A stretch of DNA of 64,000 bases, taken from assembly GCF_902728285.1 (NCBI RefSeq), contig NW_027103772.1, positions 249,149 to 313,148 on the forward strand, in the 5' to 3' direction. Positions 5,776 to 58,662 of this stretch are shown here, one piece after another. A program made the position numbers and the translations under genes. The notes beneath the pieces are model-generated. The model made no database searches. It saw only the letters and a program-made list of their open reading frames with translations, and had not been told where the DNA came from. Position 1 is the stretch's first letter. Each line of letters begins with the position of its first letter. Source of the DNA: Clytia hemisphaerica (Eukaryota).

Positions 5776-7087
5776 ATGGAAAAACTTTTATCTGTAAATA
5801 ATTTTCTCAATCGCATTTCTCAAACAAACAGCCCTTCTTTTTGACACCCGTGGCCTCTCAGTGCCTTGCACAGCAGGGAGCTGTAAAATCTCACCTTTCA
5901 TATATATTTTTCAATCTACAATCCTATATAAGGCTTAGGTTTTTTGGTGAAATGCCGTCCCATGTTTTGTCAGATAGTTCCAAGTTCGAGCAGTTGACGG
6001 TACTTTTTAAGCTGTTGAAAATATATTTGTGTATAAATTACATGAAAATATGCTCACATAATCCCATTGGTTCGCGCCATGATATCATTACCTCATATTT
6101 TCATTGTTTGCGCGATCGAGCGAACCACATCGCACTAGTGGGCAAAGAAGGTGGTAAGGCTAAAGCACGACACGGACCTAGCGCCAAGTGGAGCTTTTAA
6201 TTTCTTTTTAAATAAAGGTCATTAGTTAAAAGAACACATACACGGCATGGGTACAACCATGTACAGACTTTGCAACCAGTTCCATCAAACAATATGCCAA
6301 AAAATATTTGTTCAACCACCTTCACTTCAAGATAGGCCACCATAGAATGAACTTCCTTTTATATGATGAACCATATTCATGTGGCTTTCAGCCTTGCACT
6401 CCATCGCAGAGGCTAATCAATTTTAATGATGACTTTTTTGACTAATGGCCAAGTTAAAATATTTTAATTTTTTTATATTTGAGTATTAAAAAGGCATGCA
6501 TTCAAATAATAAAGGTTTAACATTTTTCTCTGGGCTAGTCAGTAAAATATTTCAAATAGGCTCTGTTTCACTAATGTTTATCATCAAATTTTTACCAATA
6601 AAATTCTATCAATAAGTCTTTGTTTTGGATCAAAAGCCTTTTTTTAATTTAAATGTTATATATGTTTTATATATCCCATTCTTTATATGTCAAAACAAAA
6701 AAGCATGAATCAACATTAGAAAAAAGATTTGAAATGATGAAATATATTGAAAGCACATTTCTCACACAAAGGAACATCATCTATTATATTAATAGCTGTG
6801 CTCTGTATGCTGTGTGTCACCACTTTCCTTTTCTCAAGCAATGTTTTGTTTTCTCTTTGTTATCATTGCATTAAAAAAGTGGCTTTAATTATCTAACTCA
6901 GCAACACCGATTCTGCCGCTTCTTTTTACCCCTGAATATTATCTTTAATTGTTAATTCAATATTATCGATTAATGAAAAGGAGATCAGGAAGGTTACATA
7001 ATGGAAAATTGGGGGAATATGACAGCCAAAAATCTTCAATTATGTCTATTTTCAATACTGTAATTTTGTGAAAGTTACTGCAATGAC

Positions 7088-8289
7088 CAGGGGGGGGGGT
7101 CGGTACTAAAATTCAAGATATATATGAGTACTAAAAGGTTTTTTGATGATATTTGACATACCCCCACCTAATTTTTGAAAAAGGAATTTTAATACACATG
7201 TACTAAATTTTTTTTGACATTTTAGCATAGCCTAAATTAGGCTTATTTTGGAATTCGTTTCAGAGAATGGGTCTTCAAACAAAATGCCAACTCTGTTTAT
7301 TTAAGCTGTCAGTGAACCTGATCTATGTCTCTCTATTCTAGATAAAGACTCAGAAACAGTCAAGACACTTTTCTCTGCTCTACTTTAGTCATTGCAAAGA
7401 TTGATTTGTTATTTTTCACCTCTAATTTACAGCTTGCTATTTCTTTTCTATCTAATTATCCATGGTTCTTTACAAAAACAAAGCATTCAACTTCGAAAAC
7501 ATTTTTTATTCCATAGTATATAAAAGCAGAACAGCCCGGTGGAATATTTTTCTCAGTTGGGATAAAAATTCCTATTGAAATGCTAATTGGGATAGAAATT
7601 AAATTGATAAAAATCTATGTTTCCAAAGTTACAATGTATAACAATTTGCCCTCCCGGTTATTACCATAATGGCTTTATGGCAACTCCTGAACTTGGGCAC
7701 AGGATGTAAGGTTACACATTTTGTGGATTGCATTGTGGAGTCACAAGAGTGCTCAAACTGCAGCGAGCAATGCATAATGCAAATAGTGAGCGTCTTAAAT
7801 GAAGACTCTCCACCCAATCCAAGAGTGCTCAAACTACAAAAGCAGTGAGCCAATATACAATGTATAACAATGGTGCCCTCCCGGTTATTACCATAATGGC
7901 TTTTCCAAAGTTAAAAAACCCAGTGGGGATGGTTTTGGAGTGCAATTTTTAAACATGGAATTTCATAGTGGGGCTGAAATTCAAGCGTATCTTCCCACCG
8001 GGGACGAAATTTTTGCTTAATTTGTGACACCAGGGTGTTTAAAGTCTTATATAGAAAGTTTTTATTTTTTTTCATTTTACCTAAAATGCTCGGTCAATAG
8101 TTAAATTTCCTAAAATTTGGTGATTTTTAGTACTCATGTACTAAAAATTTTCTTAAATTTCTTAAGACCCCACCTAATTTGGGATTTTAGTACACATGGT
8201 ACTAAAATGTTTTAAGGCTTCTTTTGTAATACCACCACGTCACTAAAAGTCATGATGTCTGAAATTTTAGCACCGACCCCCCCCCCCCT
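7088..8289. mobile_element. hAT-like non-autonomous element with poly-G TIRs (CAGGGGGGGGGGTCGGTACTAAAA / inverted) and 8-bp TSD GCAATGAC
   Basis: Terminal inverted repeats at 7088-7115 and 8262-8289. GCAATGAC is duplicated at 7080-7087 and 8290-8297. Has internal tandem duplication. Lies in TBL2 intron 1. Confidence 0.7.
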
Positions 8290-8816
8290 GCAATGACTTC
8301 TTCTCAAAAATGCTAATAGTATAATATCCACGCTTTCGTTTTCAACTGATCTACACTATAAAAGCTCTAAAAGCCCAAATTTTAAAAATTTGAAAAGACC
8401 ATCCTGCAGCTAATAGAAAACCATGCTTTTAGCTTAACTTGGTTCAATACTGCCATCCCGCATCTCATTCTGATACCCTTCTTTAGAGATAAAGTCAGGC
8501 AGCTGGGGTCACACAAAAAAGCGCTTTACTTACAAAGTTTGCGAACAAACTTCTGTTGGTTGTATTGAATAAATATGGACAACCGGACACTTTGAAATTA
8601 TTTACCAGGGGCGTCCGGGAACAATCGTGTTTTTGATGACGTCACCAGCAAAATAAAAATTTTATGAAAGAAAATATGAACATATTATACACCAATCGAT
8701 AATCAACGCGGATTTTGACATAGATTAAGAAAAAGGTCAGGATCAACATTTGAAAATTTGCTTACAAAAAGTTATAACGGTTTGTAATTTTGATGACGTC
8801 ACAATTACCCTTTTTT

Positions 8817-16500: not shown

Positions 16501-16583
16501 GTAATTTGTATGCTTATTTGTATAAGTAAAGAGTCAAGCAAAGATTTTAATGTTTCATTGAATTCCTGAGTTGATGATAAAAT

Positions 16584-16937
16584 CCCGGGGGGGGGGTACT
16601 TAGGCAAAAATAGGTGCTGGGTATGTGCGGACGGTAAGGGTCGGGTTTTTCACCTTTCAAAGTCTCTCTAAGGGTTACAAAAATCAGGAAATTTCAAAGT
16701 AGTCTCTCTAAGGGTGGGAAAAATCACGATTTTTAGAAAAAAAATTTGATTTTGAGAGAAAAATTTACAAATAAGTCTCACTAAGGGTAGGAAATTTTTG
16801 AAAATCAGAGAAAATTTTTCGAAAAAGTCTCACTAAGGGTCACTTTTTCACTAAAATTTGGTCTCTCTAAGGGTCGGTTTTCGGAGGTCCCGTCCGCACA
16901 TACCCCTCATTCACCAACCCTAGTACCCCCCCCCCGG
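16584..16937. mobile_element. MITE with CCCGGGGGGGGGGTACT TIRs and ~8-bp TSD GATAAAAT; internal tandem 'agtctctctaagggt' repeats
   Basis: Inverted termini at 16584-16640 and 16880-16937. GATAAAAT flanks both sides. Lies in a TBL2 intron 50 bp downstream of exon 10. Confidence 0.65.
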
Positions 16938-17279
16938 GATAAAATACCTTCCATTTGGTTTGCATAAAGCGCCAGTAGCGTCCAGCTACGGTGTGCACGG
17001 CTTTGGGTTAATCCCTGACCGGGCCAATGCTTGTATAGAATATATGGTGAAGATCAGAGATCTGACCTTAAGGAGAGCATGTGTTGAAAATACTAAATAA
17101 AATAAAAACGAAACATAAAAAGGGATTAACATTTTTATAATTATACGGTTTTTTCTATTTTTCTTTTTGAATTTTTCTAAATATATAAATCAAACCAATC
17201 AAACATTCTGTCAAGAAATTTATGCGAAAAAGAGAGAGCCAACAAACCAACTAATATATCGATTTTTGTTTACTTTTAG

Positions 17280-17311: not shown

Positions 17312-17924
17312 GTAAGTGCTTTCATAAAATGCACCCCCTGAGCTTAGGGGGGGGTGGCTAAATCTTTTTTCTTGTTTAAAGGCTATTTTTAGAAAATATT
17401 CTAGGGTCTACCTCTATAAGGGGGGAGAGGGGCTACTATATTTTGAGTAATCGAAATCGGAGCTGATTTGATAATTCAAAAAAATTTCAAATTTCGATAA
17501 TTTAAAAAAAGTCAATACACTACAATTTTATTTAGCTTGTCCTTTTTTTAGAATTTAGCTTGGGTCTATTTTCATTAGCCATCATTCAGGACTGCTCGGA
17601 GATGAACCTTTCTGTATCTGTGGCTATGTACCAATGTCCAAACTTGTTCCCATTCTCAAATTCTTGTTTTGATTGAGCAGGAGAAAGCCTAACAACCAAA
17701 ACTCTCATTCAAAGCTTAAGGAGTCTGGTCCCAAATTATATGTGAATCTCTGAACGGTTTTAAGTACATGAAATTCTTTCGGCTAATACCGGCAAATTTT
17801 ACGGCATCGTAACGACTGACAACACTTTTGTTGAGTCCGGTAATCTATCCATTGCTTGTATGGTTACAATACCAAAAGATTACTAGTATTCCTATATAAA
17901 GCCATGGATAGAGAATGATTGGGC

Positions 17925-18227
17925 TGTTCCAAAAAAAATCCATACAGGGGGTGGACGAACCTTTTCAATTCAAAACAAATTTCTTGAAAATGTGTGGATA
18001 CCCCCTGGAAAATTGCAAAATTTGCAAAACACTCTGGAAAAAAATATTTTCATGTCCTAAAGTGAAGTTGGAAGAACTAATATCAGTAGCTTACCCCCTG
18101 GAAATTTAAGAATATCCTTTTACCCCCTGGAAAAATGAACAAAGACTTCTTTAGACCTCCTGGAAATTCTTCTAGGATCTACCCCCTGGAAAAGTTTGTC
18201 CACCCCCTGTATGGTTATAAAATGGAA
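17925..18227. mobile_element. MITE with TIR CCATACAGGGGGTGGAC and internal 'ccccctggaaa' repeats
   Basis: Inverted termini at 17925-17945 and 18207-18227. Lies in the intron before the TBL2 last exon. Confidence 0.55.
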
Positions 18228-18338
18228 TGGCCCATTGCAGGGTAGGGGTGGTAATCTTGAAAAATTGATAAATGAGATTTATTTTTGTGTAGGAGAACCA
18301 GCACTTAAAATTATTCTTTAAATTTTTCTGTTTTTTAG

Positions 18339-20450: not shown

Positions 20451-20836
20451 GTACAATAATTTCGATCTTTCAGGGGGTAAAAAGTTGAAATTTTTCTAAA
20501 TTTGATTTTCTGATTTTTCCGACCCTTAGCGGGACTTTGGAAGTCCAAAAAAGGTACCCTTTTAAGGGCGGCACATACCGTACCCTCCATTTGCCTAAGT
20601 ACCCCCCCCCCCCCGCGCGGCAAGTTATACACACTCGTTATTTATTAATTTAATAATTTGGCCTGTGGATTTCTTCTGTTCTATTATCCTGAGCCAAACT
20701 TATGACTATTTTTTGCCATACTATTTTCCAAAGTCCACGTTTCATTCGTCACATTATCCTAAAAAGAGTAGATACAAAACGACAAAAAGTTTCAAAAATG
20801 TTTTCTAAATGTTGAATCTCCCAATTCTCTTTATAG

Positions 20837-20997: not shown

Positions 20998-22600
20998 GTA
21001 AGTAATTGAGTATAATGGACTATAGTTTTCTACCGAATAATAGGCTAATTCCAGAAAAAATTAGAACTCCCTATGTCGAGGAGGTCTTCTTCAGGTCTTC
21101 AAAATTTTTAGGACGCTCTTGGATTTTTTAAATTTTTTTGGACCTCTCTGTATTTTCAGCCTTGTTTTACTGACCCCTGGGTTTTTTAATTTCCAGACCA
21201 CCCTGAACGTAATTATATCTCCTTGACATACGGGATATAGACTGGCACGCCAGTCGGGCTGGAACGGTATCACGCGGGAAAAGTGAGCGTAGGAGTTAGG
21301 TAAGCGTAGGAAGAAATTTTGTCGGCGGCAAGGGCTGAAAGCCCGACTGGAGCGAAACCCCAGGAAGGAAAAAACGGCTAAGCTGAAGCCCCAATCTTAC
21401 AACGCCAGATTTCGGCGTTGTAGAAATGAATGAACTTTGAGAAATTCGTGAAATGAGAAATGAAAACTTCCGTCAAAGTCGCAGATCGTGTTGTTTTGAT
21501 TTTTGAGGAGTGAGTGATTGGAAGAAAAATGGCTGACTTCTAGTGGAAATTTTTATTTGAATAGATGTTTTGTTTCTTGTTTCTTATTTGATGAGTCTCT
21601 TCTTTGTGTATATATATGTGGCTTTTCTTCATGGTTCTCTGCATATGCAAAATTCGTTGAATCATTTTTGGTTGTCTTTTGTTTTGATTTGAGAGGCAAG
21701 AGAAGATGGAAAATCTTGTAACATCAGTTATCAGAACTTGTTGATTTGTTATCTTTTCCTATTCATAACTCATTCAATTTTAGGAATGGAGTATTCAGAT
21801 CGCAAACACTATGGACTGTGAGTTTTTTTTTCATTTCAGCTTTCTTTTTCCTAGATTTACATGTGGTAATCAAAGGGATAACCCAGGTACAGTACCCTTC
21901 GTACCCTAACAATTATTTACTGACATTCAAACATAAGACTTTTTAATTTTCCAGGACTCACAAGTCAAAGGTTCTTTATCAAAAATATATGGATGTTGCA
22001 CTACCAGAGACTACTACACGACACTGACACAATGTCGTACGTATTGGAAGTGCAACAAAACGTGCAACAAACTTTTGTGAATATCTACCTGGTTATCCCT
22101 TTGTTATCCCTATGATAAAATTATAGTTTTGAGCAGAAATAAAGTTATGGTAAAGCAGCACTGACAAACAACAAATTTCTCCAAAAAACATTTTCTTTCA
22201 AATAATGAAATATTAAAAGTCTTCTTACAAGATTTGAAAATGATTAAATTTTTTCACCATGCTTATGTTTTACTCAATTCTAGTAATTTTTCCAAAACTT
22301 ATAACTTGCATAGAGGGAAATTTAGCAGAATTTATGGAGAAAATTAAGAATTCTCAGTTTGGCAACAAACATTTTCAAATGTACTGTACTATCACTTAAA
22401 ACATTATTAAATTGCCAGATTAGTGTGGCAAGAAAACTCTAAAAAAATTTAGCCATAAATCTTCAAGTGTGAAGTTAATTTTATTTCCATAGCTCACTTG
22501 TTCAACAAATTCTTGTCAAATTGGATGTCGAACAAGTGGGTTGTTGAACAAATGAGTACCAAAATGATCGACAACCCAGTTGATTGACAATCCACTTGTT

Positions 22601-22680
22601 CGACCAACTATATAGTTGTTCGACCAACTATATAGTTGTTCGATAACCTATATAGTTGTTCGACAACCTATATAGTTGTT
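22601..22680. repeat. 20-bp minisatellite (CGACCAACTATATAGTTGTT)x4 inside transposon copy A (1 unit in copy B)
   Basis: Direct tandem units. The homologous region in copy B (~54400-54480) has a single unit. Confidence 0.8.
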
Positions 22681-23440
22681 CGACAGACCAGTTGTTTGAG
22701 AAAAGAGTGTCAAACAAGTGGTTGTCGAGCAAATGGATGTCGAAATAATAACTGTCGAACAAGTGGGACTTCCCCAAAATTATAGTTGTACGTAGATGAA
22801 AATTTGTCAAAATTTATATTACGGTGAAAATTCTCAGTTTGATAACAAAAGTTTCTCGAATAGGTAACTTTAATTTACATAATTATAATATTAAATTGTA
22901 ACATTAGTGGGACAAGAAAACTCTTTAAAAAAAATAGCCATAAATCTTGGTAGTGTAAAGAAAAGTGACAAGAAAATTCTTCAGCACATAGCCACAATCT
23001 ATAGAAAAATGTCAGAATTTACATAATTCTTTTCTCACGAAAAAAATACTACATTTTTCTAAAGTTATGAATATATATATATATAAATTATGGATTTTCC
23101 ATCAGAGCTATCTTATCACAGCACTAAATTCTGCAAATTTCAATTTTTAACAAATTAAATTTGTGCATGTCGATGTTACATTTTTCCTGACAGACTGAAA
23201 AACTTAATTATTTCAACATGACATCTAAAACTAGCAAAAGGTCTATCTATTTAATTTTCTATGCGTATATACGTGTAATTTTCCAGTGCTTGGCTGGTAC
23301 GTTACATGCTGACAGTCAGGACAGGTTGTTTTTTGTAGCAGTGAGTCTGTTGAAGAGGGTTGGGCTGTCAGACAGCAGCCAGCCTGGGAGTGATGACATT
23401 GAGAGTTTCTTTAAACTAACCAGGAAACGCTGTTTATTCT

Positions 23441-23560
23441 CACGATAACCTAAAAATGGTTTTCAAACCGTACCAAAAACTTTTGTCAACTCAATATTAT
23501 GTTGACTAAAATTTTTGGTACGGCTTGAAAACCTGATTTAGGTTATCGTGAGATATTAAA
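23441..23560. repeat. perfect ~120-bp palindrome (nested hairpin MITE) inside transposon copy A; counterpart in copy B at ~53603-53722
   Basis: ctcacgataacctaaaaatggttttcaaaccgtaccaaaaacttttgtcaac..gttgactaaaatttttggtacggcttgaaaacctgatttaggttatcgtgag. Confidence 0.8.
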
Positions 23561-24867
23561 AGTGTCAGAATTATTGATTATTATGATATGTTATTTTATT
23601 CTAAAAATAGTGTCAAAATTTTTCCAAAATGGTTATATTGCTGGGTACTTTTGAGAAGAGTTCCTGCCTGGTTAGTGTTACTGTTGTATTCATTGTGTTG
23701 GAGAGGTTCACTTAGCCACAATGAGACTAGACTGCTAGAGTAATCAAGTTCCTTAACAAGTAGTCTGTAAGTACTAAAATAAAAAAGCAAAAAGTATTTA
23801 GGTGGAACCAAAATAGAAAAAATATTTCTTACCTTGAATGAAAGAGGCTAGCAAAAAGCCACCAACCTGGATAGGGAAAACTGAATAATCCTTGTACACT
23901 TTTGATGATTGTAGAAAACTGAAGCTAAATTGCAAATACTTACCTTTCTAAGAATGTATGAAAAAACAACTAAGATGTAAAAGTTTCAAAACTTGAAAAG
24001 TGGCTCATCCTTTTACCACCCAAAATTCAAAACAAAGTGGTCTGTCGGCTTTTCTCCCTCCAAAATTTAGGAAAGCACTCCCCCGTTCTCAAAACCTCCA
24101 AAATGAAGCCGTGGCAGAATGTTCTAGTCTGTAAATCAGCAGCCTCTCACCAACTTTTGCTCGCTCTCCTACGCAGCTCCTATTCTAGCAAACGCCCGCC
24201 GCCTTTATGTTCCCGCCCTCTGACATGATTAATTTACAGACTAGTTTGCTAGTCTATACGGGATATAGAATTTTTCTGGAATAACCCAATATTTTTGATT
24301 GAATCTTAAATGTTCCTTGGAATGTTCTCAAAACCCTTTTAGTTTCATATAGATAGAATTCATAGATTTTGATTCCTTCACATTTATTTTTACCAGGGGT
24401 CGATAAATTTTCAACCTTAAAAATTCTTTGAGTTCGTGATGGACGCAGCCTTTCTATAATTAATCCACGCAAAAATTAATACACTCTTCTCGAGATGCAT
24501 CGATTTATTGTTGTCCTCGTTTTCAAACAGATTTCACTGCTATAAAATTACATATTCACGATGATAATTGTGTTGTTTACACCTCATGAGACATTTTGAA
24601 TTTTAAGTACTTTTGTTTTAGAGTTAATGTTTGCCTTTTGGGAATTTAAGTTGGTTTAAATGTATAATTTGATAGCAATGAAATCTGTTTGAAAACGAGG
24701 ACAACAATAAATTTATGCATCTCGAGAAGAGTGTATTCACTTAAAGGTATTTACGATACCTTTGCAGGCAATTTCCTACTAGAGTCTTAGGTGAGACGAA
24801 TGTATTTTTTAAATAAAGCTCTAAGTTGAAAGCTATCATTCAAAACATTGTCTATTGATTGTTTCAG

Positions 24868-27624: not shown

Positions 27625-27885
27625 CGATTAGTACTCTCGGGTACCTAATAGCCGGGGGGGTTGGAATAAGCGGGGGGGGGGGGGGGGGGGGGGGTTGGAA
27701 AAAATCTCAAAACTTAATAAGCGGGGGGGGGGGGGGGTTGGAATAAAAATGTCCTGGGTGGATAATTTATGTAAAAGAGGCTAATACAGCATAATTATGA
27801 CAAAAAAGGGAAATTTCAAAAACATTTTCCCAAAAATTAATAAGGGGGGGGGGGGACGGCTATTAAGTACCCGAGAGTATTTGAT
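27625..27885. mobile_element. MITE with TIR AGTACTCTCGGGTACCTAATAGCCGGGGG and internal (G)n/'aataagcgggggg' motifs
   Basis: Inverted termini at 27625-27660 and 27850-27885. Lies in the MVP intron between exons 9 and 10. Confidence 0.65.
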
Positions 27886-32396: not shown

Positions 32397-33397
32397 CTAA
32401 AGAAAAGAAGAAGAAAATTGATGTATGAAATGTCAATATTGGATGATTTCAATTTTAATTTGGAGTCTACTATACCGGGTGCAGCAGAAAAAACTTTGGA
32501 CGTTTGGCGAGCCACTGAGGCCGAACAAAGTCTTGTTTAGACTCAAAACCACTTTTATTAGAAAGAGGACATGCTAACTTAAATTTTGCGGTATAACTTT
32601 TTAAGTTTGGTCAAGTAGTTGTCAAGATATAAGCTTTTGAAGTCAAAATTCACTTTTCGAAAAGTGTAAAAAACACGTAAAAAAAGGTGTATTAAATTTA
32701 TGCAAATAATGAAAAAATAGCTCAGTATTTGACTTATTTAACGACTTTTACGACATAATTAATTGTTAAAATACTTTTAAAAGCAGTTTTCGTTTACAAC
32801 ATAGTCAGTTTTTAGTAAATAGTCAGTTTTTAGAAATATTTGAAAAAAATTCTTATCGAAAACGCTTAAAAATGCTTAATTTAATACCCTTTTATTACGT
32901 GTTTTTCACACTTTTCGAAAAGGAATTTTAACTTCAAAAGCTTATAACTTGACAACTACTTGACCAAACTTAAAAAGTTATACTGCAAAATTTAAGTTAG
33001 CATGTCCTCTTTCTAATAGAAGTGGTTTTGAGTCTAAACAAGACTTTGTTCGGCCTCAGTGGCTCGCCAAACGTCCAAAGTTTTTTCTGCTGCACCCGGT
33101 AGGCTGCATTGCATGAAAACTGCATACATCAATCGCAAGTTAGTTCTTTATTTCTAGAATTAGAAAGAATTATTGATTCCAAGGCAAAATGTAAAATAAA
33201 GACATTTAAAATCCTAGAGGAAGCAAAGTGAAGACCTAACCGTAATATCTTTTCAAATTAGGCCTTTTTATCAACAAGGCAAAGTGTAAAATAAAGATGT
33301 TTATAAAACCCAAAGATTGATACAATTAGTGAAGACTTAACTCAAATCCACCTCTTTTCACCACTAGTCAAAAAATCAAGAAATTCTCAAAACTCAC

Positions 33398-40307: not shown

Positions 40308-40308
<1 letters not shown>

Positions 40309-40402
<94 letters not shown>

Positions 40403-40421
40403 TCAAATCAATCAATCAATC
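40309..40421. repeat. (TCAA)n/(TTGA)n microsatellite, ~28 units, overlapping the AGL stop codon and start of its 3'UTR
   Basis: Perfect caatcaat... run, interrupted by aaatcaaatc at 40401. Confidence 0.95.
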
Positions 40422-40681
40422 ATGGCTTGAAGATCATACAAAACTTCCAGCAGACAAGCAGACGACCATGCTTGAGTGGGGCAACTATGGGAACAAAATG
40501 CGCCATCTTTGTTTGTAAGCTCCGTCAAGCCCTTCCATGGCGACGTCTCGATTTCACGTTTATGTCTTGATAACACTTCGCGTGTTTTGCTAATCGTTTG
40601 TGGTAGCAAATTGGTTTTATCGATTCGTTCGGCCATAATGAGCCGGGCACGAAGGAAAGGTCCAAGAACCCATACCCATTC
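40412..40681 (-). CDS. AGL: AGL terminal exon (EWVWVLGPFLRARLIMAERID...SPWKGLTELTNKDGAFCSHSCPTQAWSSACLLEVLYDLQAMID*)
   Basis: Acceptor gcctttcag. Aligns to human EWLWPIGYFLRAKLYF...[38 protein letters not shown]. The TGA stop at 40412-40414 is the first unit of a (TTGA)n array. Confidence 0.9.
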   Translation of the reverse strand, partial: EWVWVLGPFLRARLIMAERIDKTNLLPQTISKTREVLSRHKREIETSPWKGLTELTNKDGAFCSHSCPTQAWSSACLLEVLYDLQAMID

Positions 40682-40985: not shown

Positions 40986-41027
40986 CTAGCATAAAAAAGA
41001 AACTAGTTACTCAGTGCTAATTTCCTA

Positions 41028-41384
41028 CTCTTGTCTCCTGAATAGACGGGGGGAGTCCGAATAAGCAGGGGGTATAAAAACTTTCTAAATTCTATTAATT
41101 GGGGGGGGGGGGTGGAATAAGAGGGGGAGGGGGTAATTTGAAGACAGGAATTTTTAATTGATATCAATTTCAACAACAAAAAAGAAACTTGAACATAATA
41201 AAATGAAAAAGTAAAATAAGAACCAATACTAACAAAACTACACTGTAATAAAATATTAAATTATTTAAATTTAATTAGCAGGGGGGGGTCTTAATAAGAG
41301 CGGTGGGATGGATTTTTTTCTCTTACCAATTAGCGGGGGGGGGGCGTCTATTCGAGAGACAAGAGTATAGGCTTCCAGCATCCG
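41028..41384. mobile_element. MITE with TIR ACTCTTGTCTCCTGAATAGACGGGGGG and internal 'ggaataag(a/c)gggggg' motifs, related to 27625-27885
   Basis: Inverted termini at 41028-41055 and 41355-41384. Lies in an AGL intron. Confidence 0.65.
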
Positions 41385-47227: not shown

Positions 47228-47712
47228 CCCAGAATGCATAGTGTCCTCCCCCCCTTTATAAAGGGGGGAAACCAATTTTCCAATTTTGAATGACTGAGGG
47301 GGGACAGTGAAAATTTGAATAGTAAAGGGGGGGAAAAAAAAGAGGGGGGAAAACATCAGTAGTTGGCAAATTTGGTGGGGGGAAGTGTGAAATCACTTCA
47401 ATTTTATCTCAGCAACCAAGGTCAGTCCACATGATATCATGTGATTAGATCATGATTGAAAAATTAACCAATTTTCGTTCTATTTTGTCTAGTATTCCTT
47501 TTGCAGCAAAATTTTACGTTTGTGTCAGGTTGAAATTTGAGAAATTTATACGGGTATATGGGGGATCTGATATTTTCAGAATTTTCTGGGGGGAAAGCAA
47601 AAAAGAGGGGGGAAACTAAAAAACTGAAAAGTCACAGGGGGAAAAAAAAGAGGGGGGAGATTTAAAAAAATCAAGAATTTAGTGGGGGGAACAAACCCTG
47701 GAGGACACTATG
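47228..47712. mobile_element. MITE with TIR CATAGTGTCCTCCCCCC and multiple G-runs
   Basis: gcatagtgtcctccccccc at 47228 pairs with ggaggacactatg at 47700. Lies in an AGL intron. Confidence 0.55.
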
Positions 47713-50204: not shown

Positions 50205-51605
50205 TATTAATATTGGAAGTTTATCGTGGCTTGGACCACGAGATTTACGTTTGGGTATGTTTCGAGAGATTCTTCCCCCATTATCGGAAAATGTGGAGGA
50301 TATTCGAGAGATACATGTTTTTTTTGTTTTTTTAAGAAACACACTTTTAAGAAACACGAGGCTCAGAATGCCAAAAAATTAAGAAACATCTAAGAAAGAT
50401 GCTGAGGCTGAGAATGAGAAAATAACACTTTTTTATTCTGTTTTTTAAGAACCTTCCAATCAAGGCAAAGTTCCAGAAAAATCTGGAAAAATACTTACAT
50501 AACAGTTAGAAACACTTGAGAAAGTCAGAAAATCAATATAGAAGATAGGAAAGTACCGTAGATTAGTCTATAGACTAATGTATTATCGACATGCGTCCTT
50601 TAAGCTTGACAAAGTTTAGAAACATGTAAGAAACATTTAAGGATCAAAAGGCCGATTTCTTAAGAAACATTGAGGCTGCTTGGTAAAACTAGTTTCTTAA
50701 AAAACAAACGTGCAATTTACCTTACACATATGGTACCCCATGTTACTGCACCCAGGGGGGGGGGTCAGTGTACTAGAAAGCGGCATGTATGTGTACTACA
50801 AGGTATTTTTCAAAACTTGACACCCACCCACCCCTGAAGTACACCATACTACATGGAAAAGTCCCAAAACCACCCCATTCCCCCCATTTACTACCGGGCA
50901 CTACCTAGAAAAATCCGGGAAATAAAGAAACTCTTTTCCGAAAATCGGAAAATCGGGTAAACACTTTTCCGAAAATCGGGAAATCGGGAAAACTTTTTTT
51001 CGGAAAATCAGGGAATCGGGAAATCGGGAAAACTTTTTTCCAAAAATCGGAAAAACAGGAAAATTGTTCTCAAAAATCCAAAATGCGTGAGAAATCAAAC
51101 TTTTCAAAAATTAAGCGATACCATGTGGAAATGCACGAGTCTCACACCCAATGCGTGAGAGTTGGCACCAATGTTGAATGTTTGAATTCAAATGTTCGAA
51201 TGTTTACATTGACTCGATAAACCTTCATTTCAGTGGGATCTAGTAGTAGAATTTTTGTTTCCACACTTTTAACATCGATTTTGGACCCAACACCCCTATT
51301 TTGGTACACAGGTAGTAAAAATCAAATTCGATTTTGGACCCAACACCCCAATTATAGTACACAGGTAGTACATGACAAATTTTTTTCTCAAACACCCACC
51401 CACCCCAGGATACATGCCACCTTCTGGTACACTGACCCCCTGCTGCACCTTGTAAGGAAATAATACTTGATAATTGGGTAATCAGAAGGTCTTAGTACAA
51501 ATAGTTTAGAAAACATCCTCCTTGCCCGATGATGGGGGAAGAATCTCTCGAAACGTACCAAACGTAAAGCTCGTGGTCCAAGCCACGATAGACTTCCAAT
51601 ATAAG
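50205..51605. mobile_element. TIR element (~100-bp TIRs) containing a nested poly-G-TIR MITE (approx 50735-51460) and 'gaaaatcgggaaatcggg' tandem repeats
   Basis: 50205-50310 is the reverse complement of 51500-51605. Inner pair cacccaggggggggggtcagtgtac / gtacactgaccccctgctgcacc. Lies in an AGL intron. Confidence 0.6.
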
Positions 51606-52903: not shown

Positions 52904-55900
52904 TAGACTAGCAAACTAGTCTGTTAATTAATCATGTCAGAGGGCGGGAACAAAAAGGCGGCGGGCGTTTGCTAGAATAGGAGCTGCGTAGGAGAGCGAG
53001 CAAAAGTTGGTGAGAGGCTGCTGATTAACAGACTAGAACATTCTGCCACGGCTTCATTTTGGAAGTTGTGAGAACGGAGGAGTGCTTTCCTAAATTTTGG
53101 AGGGAGAAAAGCCGACAGACCACTTTGTTTTGAATTTTGGGTGGTAAAAGGATGAGCCACTTTTCAAGTTTTGAAACTTTTACATCTTAGTTGTTTTTGT
53201 TATTCATACATTCTTAGAAGGTAAGTATTTGCAATTTAGCTTCAGTTTTCTACAATCATCAAAAGTGTACAAGGATTATTCCGTTTTCCCTATGCAGGTT
53301 GGTGGCTTTTTGCTAGCCTCTTTCATTCAAGGTAAGAAATATTTTTTCTATTTTGGCTCCACCTACGACTGCACCTTACTTTTGCTTTTTTATTTTAGTA
53401 CTTACAGACTACTTGTTAAGGAACTTGATTACTCTAGTCTCATTTTAGCTAAGTGAACCCCTCCAACACCCTTTTTTATGAATACAACAGTAGCACTAAC
53501 CAGGTAGGAACTCTGCTCAAAAGTACCCAGCAATATAACCTTTTTGGAAAGATTTTGACATTATTTTTAGAATAATAACATCATAATAATCAATAAATCT
53601 GACACTTTTAATATCTCACGATAACCTAAAACAGGTTTTCAAGCCGTACCAAAAATTTTAGTCAACATAATATGTAGTTGACTAAAGTTTTTGGTAAACG
53701 GTTTGAAAACCATTTTTAGGTTATCGTGAGAGTAAACAGCATTTCCTGGTTAGTTTAAAGAAACTCCAAAGATTCTCCCTCTCATCACTCTCAATGTCAT
53801 TACTGCCAGGCTGCTGTCTGACAGGCCGACCCTCTTCAACAGACTCACTGCTACAAAAAACAACCTGTCCTGACTGTCAGCATGTAGCGTACCAGCCAAG
53901 CACAGGAAAATTACACGTACGCGTAGAAAATTAAATAGATAGACCTTTTGCTAGTTAAGATGTCATGTAATTTGTGAAAAATTGAAATTTGCAGAATTTA
54001 GTGCTGTGATAAGATAGCTCTGATAGAAAATCCAGAATTTATATGGTGACAGAAAAGTTTTTGGGCACAAGTATTCATAATTTTAGAAAAATGCAGTATT
54101 TTTATCGTGAGAAGAGAATTATTGTAAATTCTGACATTTTTCTATAGATTGTGGCTATGTGCTGAAGAATTCTCGTCACACCAAAAAAACTGAAAAATTA
54201 ACCTTACACTTTAAGATTTATGGCTAATTTTTTTAAGAGTTTTCTTGCCACACTGATCTTACAATCTAATATTATAATTATGTAAATTAAAGTTTTCACC
54301 GTAATATAAATTCTGACAAATTTTCATCTACATACAACTATAATTTTTGGGGAAATCCCACTTGTTCGACAGTTATTAGTTCGACACCCATTTGCTCGAC
54401 AACCACTTGTTCGACACTCTTTTCTCAAACAACTGGTCTGTCGAACAACTATATAGATTGTCGAACAAGTGGATTGTCAATCAACTGGGTTGTCGATCAT
54501 TTTGGCACCCATTTGTTCCACAACCCACTTGTTCGACATCCAATTTGACAAGAATTTGTTGAACAAGTGAGCTGTGGAAAAAATGGGTTGTTGAACATGT
54601 GACATATATATCACCCATTTTTCTGTAAATTGTAAGTATCTGTGTACTATAATGTATATAATTAACTTCACACTTGAAGATTTATGGCTAAATTTTCTTG
54701 CCACACTAATCTGGCAATTCAAAAATATGTAAATGTTTTAAGTGATAGTACTACAGTACATTTGAGAAATTTTTGTTGCCAAACTTAGGAGAATAATTAA
54801 TTTTCTCCATAAATTCTGCGAAATCTCCCTCTACGTAGGTATAAGTTTTGGAAACATTACTAGAATTGAGTAAAACATAAGCTTTGTGAAAAAATTTAAT
54901 CATTTTTAAATGTTGTACAGTTGTAAGAAGACTTTAAATATTTCATTATTTGAAAGAAAATGTTTTTTGGAGAAATTTAATTGTCAGTGCTGCTTTATTT
55001 CTACTCAAAACTGTGTAATTTTATCATAGGGATAGATACGGTACGTATTCAACTCAAAACAAAGGGTTAACCAGGTAGATATTCACAAAAGTTTATTGCA
55101 CTTCCAATACGTACGACATGGTGTCAGTGTCGTGTAGTAGTCTCTGGTAGTCCAACAACCATATATTTTTGATAAAGAACCCTTGACTTGTGAGTCCTGG
55201 AAAATTAAAAAGTCTTATGTTTGAATGTCAGTAAATAATTCAATAATTGTTAGGGTATTGTACCTGGGTTATCCCTTTGATTACTACATGTAAACCTAGG
55301 AAAAAGAAAGCTGAAATGAAAAAAAAACTCACAGTCCATAGTGTTTGCAATCTGAATACTCCATTCCTAAAATTGAATGAGTTATGAATAGGAAAAGATA
55401 ACAAGTCAACAAGTTCTGATAACTGATGTTACAAGGACAAGATTTTCCATCTTCTCTTACCTCTCAAATCAAAACAAAAAAACAACTAAAAATAAGCCAA
55501 AGAATTTTGCATGAACCAGAGAACCATGAAGAAAAGCCACATATACACAAAGAAGAGACTCATCAAACAAGAAACAAAACATCTTTTCAAATAAAGATTT
55601 CCACTAGAAGTCAGCCATTTTTCTTCCGATCACTCACTCCTCAAAAATCAAAACAACACGATCTGCGACTTTAACGGAAGTTTTCATTTCTCATTTCACG
55701 AATTTCTCAAAGTTCATTCATTTCTACAACGCCGAAATCTGGCGTTGTAAGATTGGGGCTTCAGCTTAGCCGTTTTTTCCTTCCTGGGGTTTCGCTCCAG
55801 TCGGGCTTTCAGCCCTTGCCGCCGACAAAATTTCTTCCTACGCTTACCTAACTCCTACGCTCACTTTTCCCGCGTGATACCGTACCAGCCCGACTGGCGT

Positions 55901-58035: not shown

Positions 58036-58366
58036 CTGAACAGAAAGTTGGTAAGAAACTCGATAAAAGTGCTTCTAAGAGCTCACACACCAAAGGATTC
58101 GTGTTTTAGTACATGATTTTTTTTCTACGTCACTGCAATAATCAAATTTTTATGTTTGGATACTTTTTTACGAATTGAAATTAAAGTTTTAAAATATAAT
58201 AACAATAAGTTTAAATCAGAATTTTAGTAAACTCTTATAATTTAGACTTTTTACGACCTGGGTTTCCATAATCAGGATAAAATTTCCGTTCCAACGGTAT
58301 ATAACAACCCCATTCTTCTCGTGGGTTAAGCAAAAACGCTTCTAACTCGAGATATTTAATTCTGCT

Positions 58367-58635
58367 CAGGGGGGGGAGGTATGCAGGTGGTACTAGACAT
58401 CATGATGACTAAGTGCAAAATTGAAAATTTGAGAGTACACCCACGACCCTTAACAGTTAGTACCCAAAAGTACTGAGTCCATTTGACTGCTGGTAGGTTG
58501 ACACCACCCCCACTCGCACTACTAAGTGCATTTGAGTAACACAAGGTACTAACTGTAAATTCCAAAAATCAAATATGACCCGCCACGATAACAACCGTCA
58601 TGATGTCTGGGTTCAACTGCATGACCCCCCCCCTG
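58367..58635. mobile_element. MITE with CAGGGGGGGG...CCCCCCCCCTG termini (same terminal type as 7088-8289)
   Basis: TIRs caggggggggaggtatgcaggtggtactagacatcatgatgac / gtcatgatgtct...gaccccccccctg. Lies in an AGL intron. Confidence 0.6.
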
Positions 58636-58662
58636 TTCTGATCCCCGACTAATTATAATTAC

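Follow-up and report, generated by a model that had tools for sequence, protein, structure and literature searches.

The stretch of DNA analyzed here, referred to as the window, comprises 64,000 nucleotides of Clytia hemisphaerica contig NW_027103772.1 (assembly GCF_902728285.1, positions 249,149 to 313,148, forward strand). The window is AT-rich (35% G+C) and eukaryotic in appearance. It contains a major vault protein (MVP) gene, recognized by Vault-domain matches, and genes that we take, from our own reading of the open reading frames (ORFs), to be thioredoxin, WD40 and glycogen-debranching-enzyme-like. The protein collection held nothing identical to the MVP exon. Its best match, at 98% (aa) and 89% (nt), was to a metagenome contig of 588 bp, and a longer MVP query matched proteins of molluscs, cnidarians and brachiopods at 72-75% identity. 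The window is crowded with small inverted-repeat elements, with 94 inverted-repeat pairs detected. This report concerns a set of these elements whose terminal inverted repeats (TIRs) carry a homopolymer of G at the left end and of C at the right end. Four complete copies (E1, E2, E3 and E4) and a truncated E2-like end (E5) were found.

Homopolymer runs were far more frequent in the window than its composition would predict. Fifteen G or C runs of at least 8 were observed as compared to 0.1 expected in block shuffles. Eight of these runs are termini of the poly-G-ended elements, six lie inside two other MITEs (miniature transposable elements with inverted repeats) and one, at 17347, lies in a further stretch. 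Lowering the threshold gave 18 runs of at least 7 and 34 runs of at least 6, and the "dozens of G-runs" described in an earlier note, made from the sequence alone, was therefore an overstatement. On the forward strand, runs of at least 6 consisted of 26 G runs versus 8 C runs.

Poly-G-ended elements in the window

Reading of the sequence confirmed that four elements start with CA followed by G8-10, or with CCC followed by G10, and finish with the inverse. E1 begins CA G10 TCGGTACTAAAAT (CA G10 TCGGTAC) and ends ATTTTAGCACCGA C12 TG (GCACCGA C12 TG), forming a TIR of ~32 nt with 87% identity. E2 contains a second inverted repeat, GGGTATGTGCGGACGG, and its interior carries five or six TCWCTAAGGGT repeats. 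E4 begins CA G10 TCAGTGTACTAGAAAG (TCAGTGTAC after the G10), ends CTGGTACACTGA C5 TG (GTACACTGA before the C5) and has tandem repeats of 31 bp and 53 bp in its interior. E4 is nested in a MITE unrelated to the poly-G-ended elements, and this position is in agreement with insertion of E4 by transposition. For E5 neither a partner end nor a flanking duplication was found, and the upstream sequence contained no matching flank 7-mer. No further copies or empty sites were detected in the window beyond E1-E5. The earlier note had placed the four complete elements at the correct sites, and its exact boundaries are superseded by those in Table 1 (for E4 it had given ~50735-51460).

Table 1. Positions of the poly-G-ended elements, their target-site duplications (TSDs) and the other MITEs discussed in the text (window coordinates, except for the L007 copy)
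Feature	Position	Strand	Length (bp)	Description
E1	7088-8290	.	1203	non-coding; sequence read directly
E1 TSD CAATGAC	left 7081-7087, right 8291-8297	.	7	7/7 match, symmetric termini
E2	16584-16938	.	355	ends CCC G10 TACT.. / ..AGTA C10 GGG
E2 TSD ATAAAAT	16577-16583, 16939-16945		7	7/7 match
E3	58367-58635	.	269	CA G8 AGGTATGCAGG.. / ..CTGCATGA C9 TG
E3 TSD TTCTGCT / TTCTGAT	58360-58366 / 58636-58642	.	7	6/7 match, one mismatch
E4	50753-51442	.	690	nested in another MITE
E4 TSD CTGCACC	50746-50752, 51443-51449		7	7/7 match
E5	20505-20617	-		single truncated E2-like end, ..GCCTAAGTA C13 GCG
Host MITE of E4	50210-51602	.		large; TIRs ~95 nt, TAA flanks
TA-flanked MITE	27632-27879	.		TIR (TA)CTCTCGGGTACYTAATAGCCG; internal G7, G23, G15, G12, all + strand
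TA-flanked MITE, same family	41026-41367	.		TIR (TA)CTCTTGTCTCYYGAATAGACG; internal G6, G12, G8, G10
Third MITE, unrelated	47237-47712	.		TIR CATAGTGTCCTCC, 3-bp ATG flanks; many G6-G7 runs, none of at least 8
L007 copy	1551-1702 of metagenome contig L007		152	complete; exact 7-bp TSD TTCTAAA

The target-site duplication is 7 bp

Models of TSD length were compared on five complete copies, E1-E4 and a copy found in a metagenome contig (L007). When the termini were taken as symmetric (CAG..CTG or CCCGGG..CCCGGG), a 7-bp duplication was seen in 5/5 copies with 34/35 positions matching, the single mismatch being in E3. Extending the duplication to 8 bp by the final base of the element's right end gave a match at the extra position in 2/5 copies (E1 and E2 only), and extending it by the initial base of its left end gave a match in 0/5. 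The TSD sequences of the different elements were unrelated to one another.

The earlier note had reported clean 8-bp TSDs, GCAATGAC and GATAAAAT. These 8-mers are literal repeats at E1 and E2, but they are not true 8-bp TSDs, as on the right-hand side their initial base still belongs to the element, being its terminal G (..CTG or ..GGG). In addition, the 8-bp model works only if each right end, that of the unrelated E2 included, falls one base short of the left end. The duplication is therefore 7 bp and not 8 bp. This removes the key argument for a hAT origin. Superfamily calls of non-autonomous elements use TSD length together with the first ~11 terminal bases (PMC4455052), and a boundary error of a single base makes a 7-bp element look like hAT. 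The correction matters mainly for annotation, and the corrected boundary and TSD are the main value of this re-analysis.

Relationships among the elements

Thirteen ends were aligned and displayed one common architecture. The G run was the best-conserved block in this alignment, although most of these ends were discovered through the run. In E1, E3, E4 and their relatives the terminus reads CA-G(5-13)-TC[A/G]GT(G)TAC, while in E2 and E5 it reads C[C/G]C-G(10-13)-TACTTAGGC. E1 and E4 were 74% identical over the first 80 bp. An AGACAT(C/G)A..ATGA box was common to the right end of E1, both ends of E3 and the left end of L007, and a CAGACATCATGA box was present in E3 and in the right end of E1. 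The left end of E1 also had ATGAGTACTAA in common with L007 and a second metagenome contig, L103. A C-rich box, TTTGACATACCCCCACCTA, lies ~65-85 bp from the end in E1, L103 and a third contig, L054, and occurs in a variant form in E4.

E5 was 75% identical to E2 over E2 positions 4-109, and the two have in common the G run followed by TACTTAGGCAA, as well as GGTATGTGC. Between E2/E5 and E1/E3/E4 only the G run and the (G)TACT that follows it were common. Judged by these alignments, E1, E3 and E4 form one diverged group and E2 and E5 another, and these two families have a terminal style in common. The single family of poly-G MITEs described in the earlier note thus did not hold, as E2 and the truncated end separate from the rest.

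Relatives in metagenome contigs

A scan of metagenome contigs for the terminal pattern produced 120 matches, most of which arose by chance in GC-rich bacterial contigs or were poly-G junk. Of the 120, four were useful, three of them as relatives (L103, L054 and L007) and one, L120, for its terminal form only. L112, L120, L093 and L038 yielded single ends only. Sequence comparisons, nhmmer among them, gave 84% identity over 141 bp between L103 and the left end of E1, and 73% identity between L054 and the same end. In L103 the E1-like left end (1892-2127) directly follows an intronless Ro60 ORF (TROVE+vWA) and the contig ends within the element. The complete copy in L007 lies just 3' of an intronless MADF+BESS ORF (54-920) and looks like an insertion into the 3' untranslated region (3'UTR) in a transcript-type contig. 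The left end of this copy was outside the selection made by the search pattern, and the decayed G run there reads CAAGGGCGTTGCC. Homology of all three relatives to E1 starts at the CAG and the flanks differ, indicating that the E1 group occurs in several organisms, and in those other organisms the relatives lie in transcript-like contigs. Scans of viral contigs and of the MVP loci of relatives (L002, L124-L128) found no such ends. In total, the 64 kb contained five copies or fragments, and three metagenome contigs carried relatives.

A superficially similar repeat was found in seven JAAUXW/JAAUYA contigs (L005, L029, L060, L024, L078, L118 and L106), where CAG9TCGGTGCAAATCCGAAAATCG follows a common 25-nt sequence, TAAGGGAGCGTTCATTATTTACGG. 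This repeat was rejected as a relative since its upstream flank is common to the copies and its G run is subterminal, not terminal. On one of the MVP-carrying contigs, L125, a 724-aa ORF (3-2174, - strand) matched Endonuclease VII (His-Me finger) and may be a transposon protein.

Nature of the elements and proposed mechanism

The poly-G-ended elements combine TIRs, a TSD of fixed length, small size (152-1203 bp) and a lack of coding capacity. No protein is encoded by any copy, and E1 has neither an ORF nor a Pfam match in its six frames. We conclude, with a probability of about 0.8, that these elements are MITEs, DNA transposons of the cut-and-paste kind that are not autonomous and that generate a 7-bp TSD. 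The TIRs and the 7-bp flanking duplications bear out the earlier note on this point.

Several observations weigh against this conclusion. The TSD length comes from only five complete copies. The right ends from the metagenome contigs were found with a pattern that requires CAG, and are not independent evidence for a CA/TG terminus. The G run is degenerate or short in the left end of L007 and the right end of E4, indicating that surviving copies need not all have a long run. In addition, neither the window (no ORF >185 aa) nor any fetched locus yielded an autonomous element or a transposase, so that mobilization in trans and the superfamily are inferred. A search with a pseudo-protein, built from those frames of the MITE ends that lack stops, matched no spurious ORF calls on other contigs.

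We propose that a transposase of the DDE type, encoded elsewhere in the genome, would mobilize the elements in trans. The enzyme would bind the ends, for which the repeated GTACTAAAA-type subterminal motifs, the AGACAT..ATGAGTAC box and the C-rich box are candidate sites, and would then cut at the CA/TG dinucleotides, with reinsertion at a staggered cut of 7 bp. The run of G may be an inherited part of the terminus with a length that drifts by slippage. Left and right runs within single copies measured 10 vs 12, 10 vs 5 and 8 vs 9. In partner ends that were not used for discovery, the run was 9-12 in three, 5 in one and degenerate in one. As the run persists in members that have diverged, the enzyme probably tolerates or recognizes it. 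The terminal G/C runs also place length-unstable sequence in the introns and UTRs of host genes.

A bolder and rather doubtful extension is that the elements belong to an undescribed animal transposon lineage whose transposase requires or exploits a G homopolymer directly next to the CA at which it cuts, and that has spread in several, probably marine, eukaryotes and seeded their 3'UTRs. As part of the same doubtful proposal, this lineage would be either a branch of 7-bp-TSD hAT elements outside fungi or a new group. A literature search for MITEs with poly-G TIRs or for the CAGGGGGGG string found nothing relevant, with Repbase and Dfam outside this search.

Superfamily assignment

The earlier note proposed a hAT-like origin. 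The usual terminal motif of hAT elements such as Ac, Charlie and Tip100 is CAGGG, and hAT termini are short TIRs of 10-25 bp whose start is of the CAG/YARNG type. Short TIRs of the CAG type were found in E1, E3 and E4, and E2/E5, with their CCC/CGC starts, do not fit. The CAGGG start thus agrees with the proposal, but the length of the TSD does not and no transposase was linked to the elements, making a hAT-like origin a possibility. The TSD of hAT elements is normally 8 bp (PMC3942097), a length that was not found here. However, hAT lineages with TSDs of 5, 6 and 7 bp exist, the 7-bp lineage (hAT7) having been described only from rust fungi (PMC12730594), and the example query in the Repbase paper names hAT entries with a 7-bp TSD (PMC4455052). 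The poly-G-ended elements have the 7-bp TSD of hAT7, the other half of the hAT7 definition being a hAT-clade transposase. They also resemble hAT MITEs in their short CAGGG TIRs, short subterminal repeats and the non-coding architecture of deletion derivatives, and differ in the long G homopolymer right after CA, which was not found described for hAT. Of the candidate enzymes, we favor one of the hAT type from a lineage with 7-bp TSDs, at slightly below even odds, over a P-type enzyme (1360/Galileo-like), which is a weaker candidate, and over any other type, which is weaker still.

An alternative, which we regard as possible but on the unlikely side, is that the elements are P-superfamily MITEs with 7-bp TSDs, moved by a 1360/Galileo-type transposase that carries a THAP domain. 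A start with CAGGGG is more usual for hAT termini. The repeated TAAGGGT motifs of E2 are reminiscent of the core of THAP sites, TxxGGG, a resemblance that we treat only as a lead. The 7-bp TSD seen in all five copies is as made by 1360 and Galileo (PMC3698922, PMC4168063) and falls within the 7-8 bp of the P superfamily. CA..TG termini and MITEs with unrelated interiors are further likenesses to 1360, Galileo and P-derived MITEs. P-superfamily elements carry a protein-binding box tens of bp inside their ends, with THAP sites of P and Galileo 40-70 bp in (PMC3688188). The conserved C-rich box described above lies at a comparable position and is a candidate site only. However, these termini had no transposase of the THAP or P type near them, and the P-superfamily members with a 7-bp TSD, namely Galileo and 1360, belong to Drosophila as far as is known, whereas P itself and the P-MITEs of Anopheles have 8 bp (PMC1562414) and BuT5 has 8-9 bp. 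The TSDs also lacked the GTANTAC-like palindrome of Galileo (PMC4168063), in a sample of five.

The reading of the earlier note, one family of classical hAT-derived MITEs making 8-bp TSDs, is improbable. It would account for the short TIRs, for the 8-mers repeated at E1 and E2 and for the CAGGG start, which is that of many hAT elements. However, it needs a right terminus one base shorter than the left in every element, and it gains an extra matching position in 2/5 elements as compared to 34/35 positions for the 7-mer. E2 and E5 would have to be included despite having only the G run and TACT in common with the others and starting with CCC/CGC, not CAG. The 8-mers also depart from the hAT target consensus (nTnnnnAn or nnnTAnnn), a weak point with n=5.

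Among other groups, Dada (6-7 bp) and Kyakuja (7 bp) are alike in TSD length, and Kyakuja also has CA..TG termini (PMC12730594), but Kyakuja is fungal and has no TIRs. Dada was rejected as it inserts into snRNA/tRNA genes (PMC3706591) and there was no Rfam match anywhere in the window. For E2, with its CCC..GGG ends, piggyBac was rejected as the flanks are ATAAAAT/ATAAAAT with no TTAA TSD. An autonomous partner, if found, would show either 7-bp-TSD hAT elements in animals or 1360/Galileo-like P elements outside flies, and would permit a test of the role of the homopolymer in end recognition.

Other G-rich MITEs and the origin of the G runs

The three other G-rich MITEs listed in the earlier note, at 27.6, 41 and 47 kb, are present, and the note was correct in keeping them apart from the poly-G-ended elements, as they belong to other families and their G runs are internal. 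The MITEs at 27.6 and 41 kb form a TA-flanked family with the TIR CTCT[C/T]G..AATAG[C/A]CG and with G runs on the + strand. In this family the long G tracts (up to G23) are direct and not inverted in the two arms, and they are linked to AATAAGC-Gn-TTGGAATAA units that recur.

The earlier note also suggested that the G runs could form G-quadruplexes. With a canonical motif defined as four tracts of at least G3 with loops of 1-7 nt, only two motifs were found in the window, at 27672-27694 and 27723-27737. These are the G23 and G15 tracts of the unrelated 27.6-kb MITE, and no canonical motif was found at the poly-G termini in the window. A run of G8-13 alone is too short for a three-tetrad intramolecular quadruplex, leaving the quadruplex interpretation of the termini unsupported. 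More broadly, it is very unlikely that the G runs are chiefly regulatory or structural G-quadruplexes of the host in introns and not transposon termini. Many of the runs do lie in non-coding parts of genes and G exceeds C on the + strand, but this strand bias is due to three MITE copies and not to many independent events, and two canonical motifs in 64 kb, confined to one TA-flanked MITE, are few.

The possibility that the poly-G termini are artefacts of sequencing or assembly, or inverted repeats formed by chance in elements that are not mobile, is effectively refuted: two-color Illumina chemistry is known to give poly-G runs and poly-G junk was seen in some metagenome contigs (e.g. L044), but the runs are paired as G left and C right at TIR edges with 7-bp flanking duplications, homologous ends occur at unrelated loci in independent data sets and the excess of long runs over shuffled sequence is large. 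The MITEs are real. Their termini are modestly unusual in composition and their TSD is of a less common length, and they are otherwise ordinary.

Other repeats in the window

A further MITE bearing G/C runs, unrelated to the poly-G termini, was found at 17920-18234, with the TIR TGGGCTGTTCC..ATACAGGGGGTGGAC and five internal TACCCCCTGGAAAA repeats. At 32473-33101 there is a foldback-like element whose 184-nt arms, 261 nt apart, show 97% complementarity, and at 40308-40422 an (AATC)28 microsatellite that is 98% pure. Three other repeats were each present twice. Two copies of a near-palindromic MITE starting TCTCACGATAACCTAAAA (23438-23553 and 53614-53731) each lie near a copy of a 121-bp inverted-repeat element starting CTAGTCTGT (24124-24244 and 52916-53036). 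The third repeat, TGTCGAACAA..CTATATAG, was found at 22526-22685 and 54439-54538. The pairing of these three repeats suggests a larger duplicated or inverted block.

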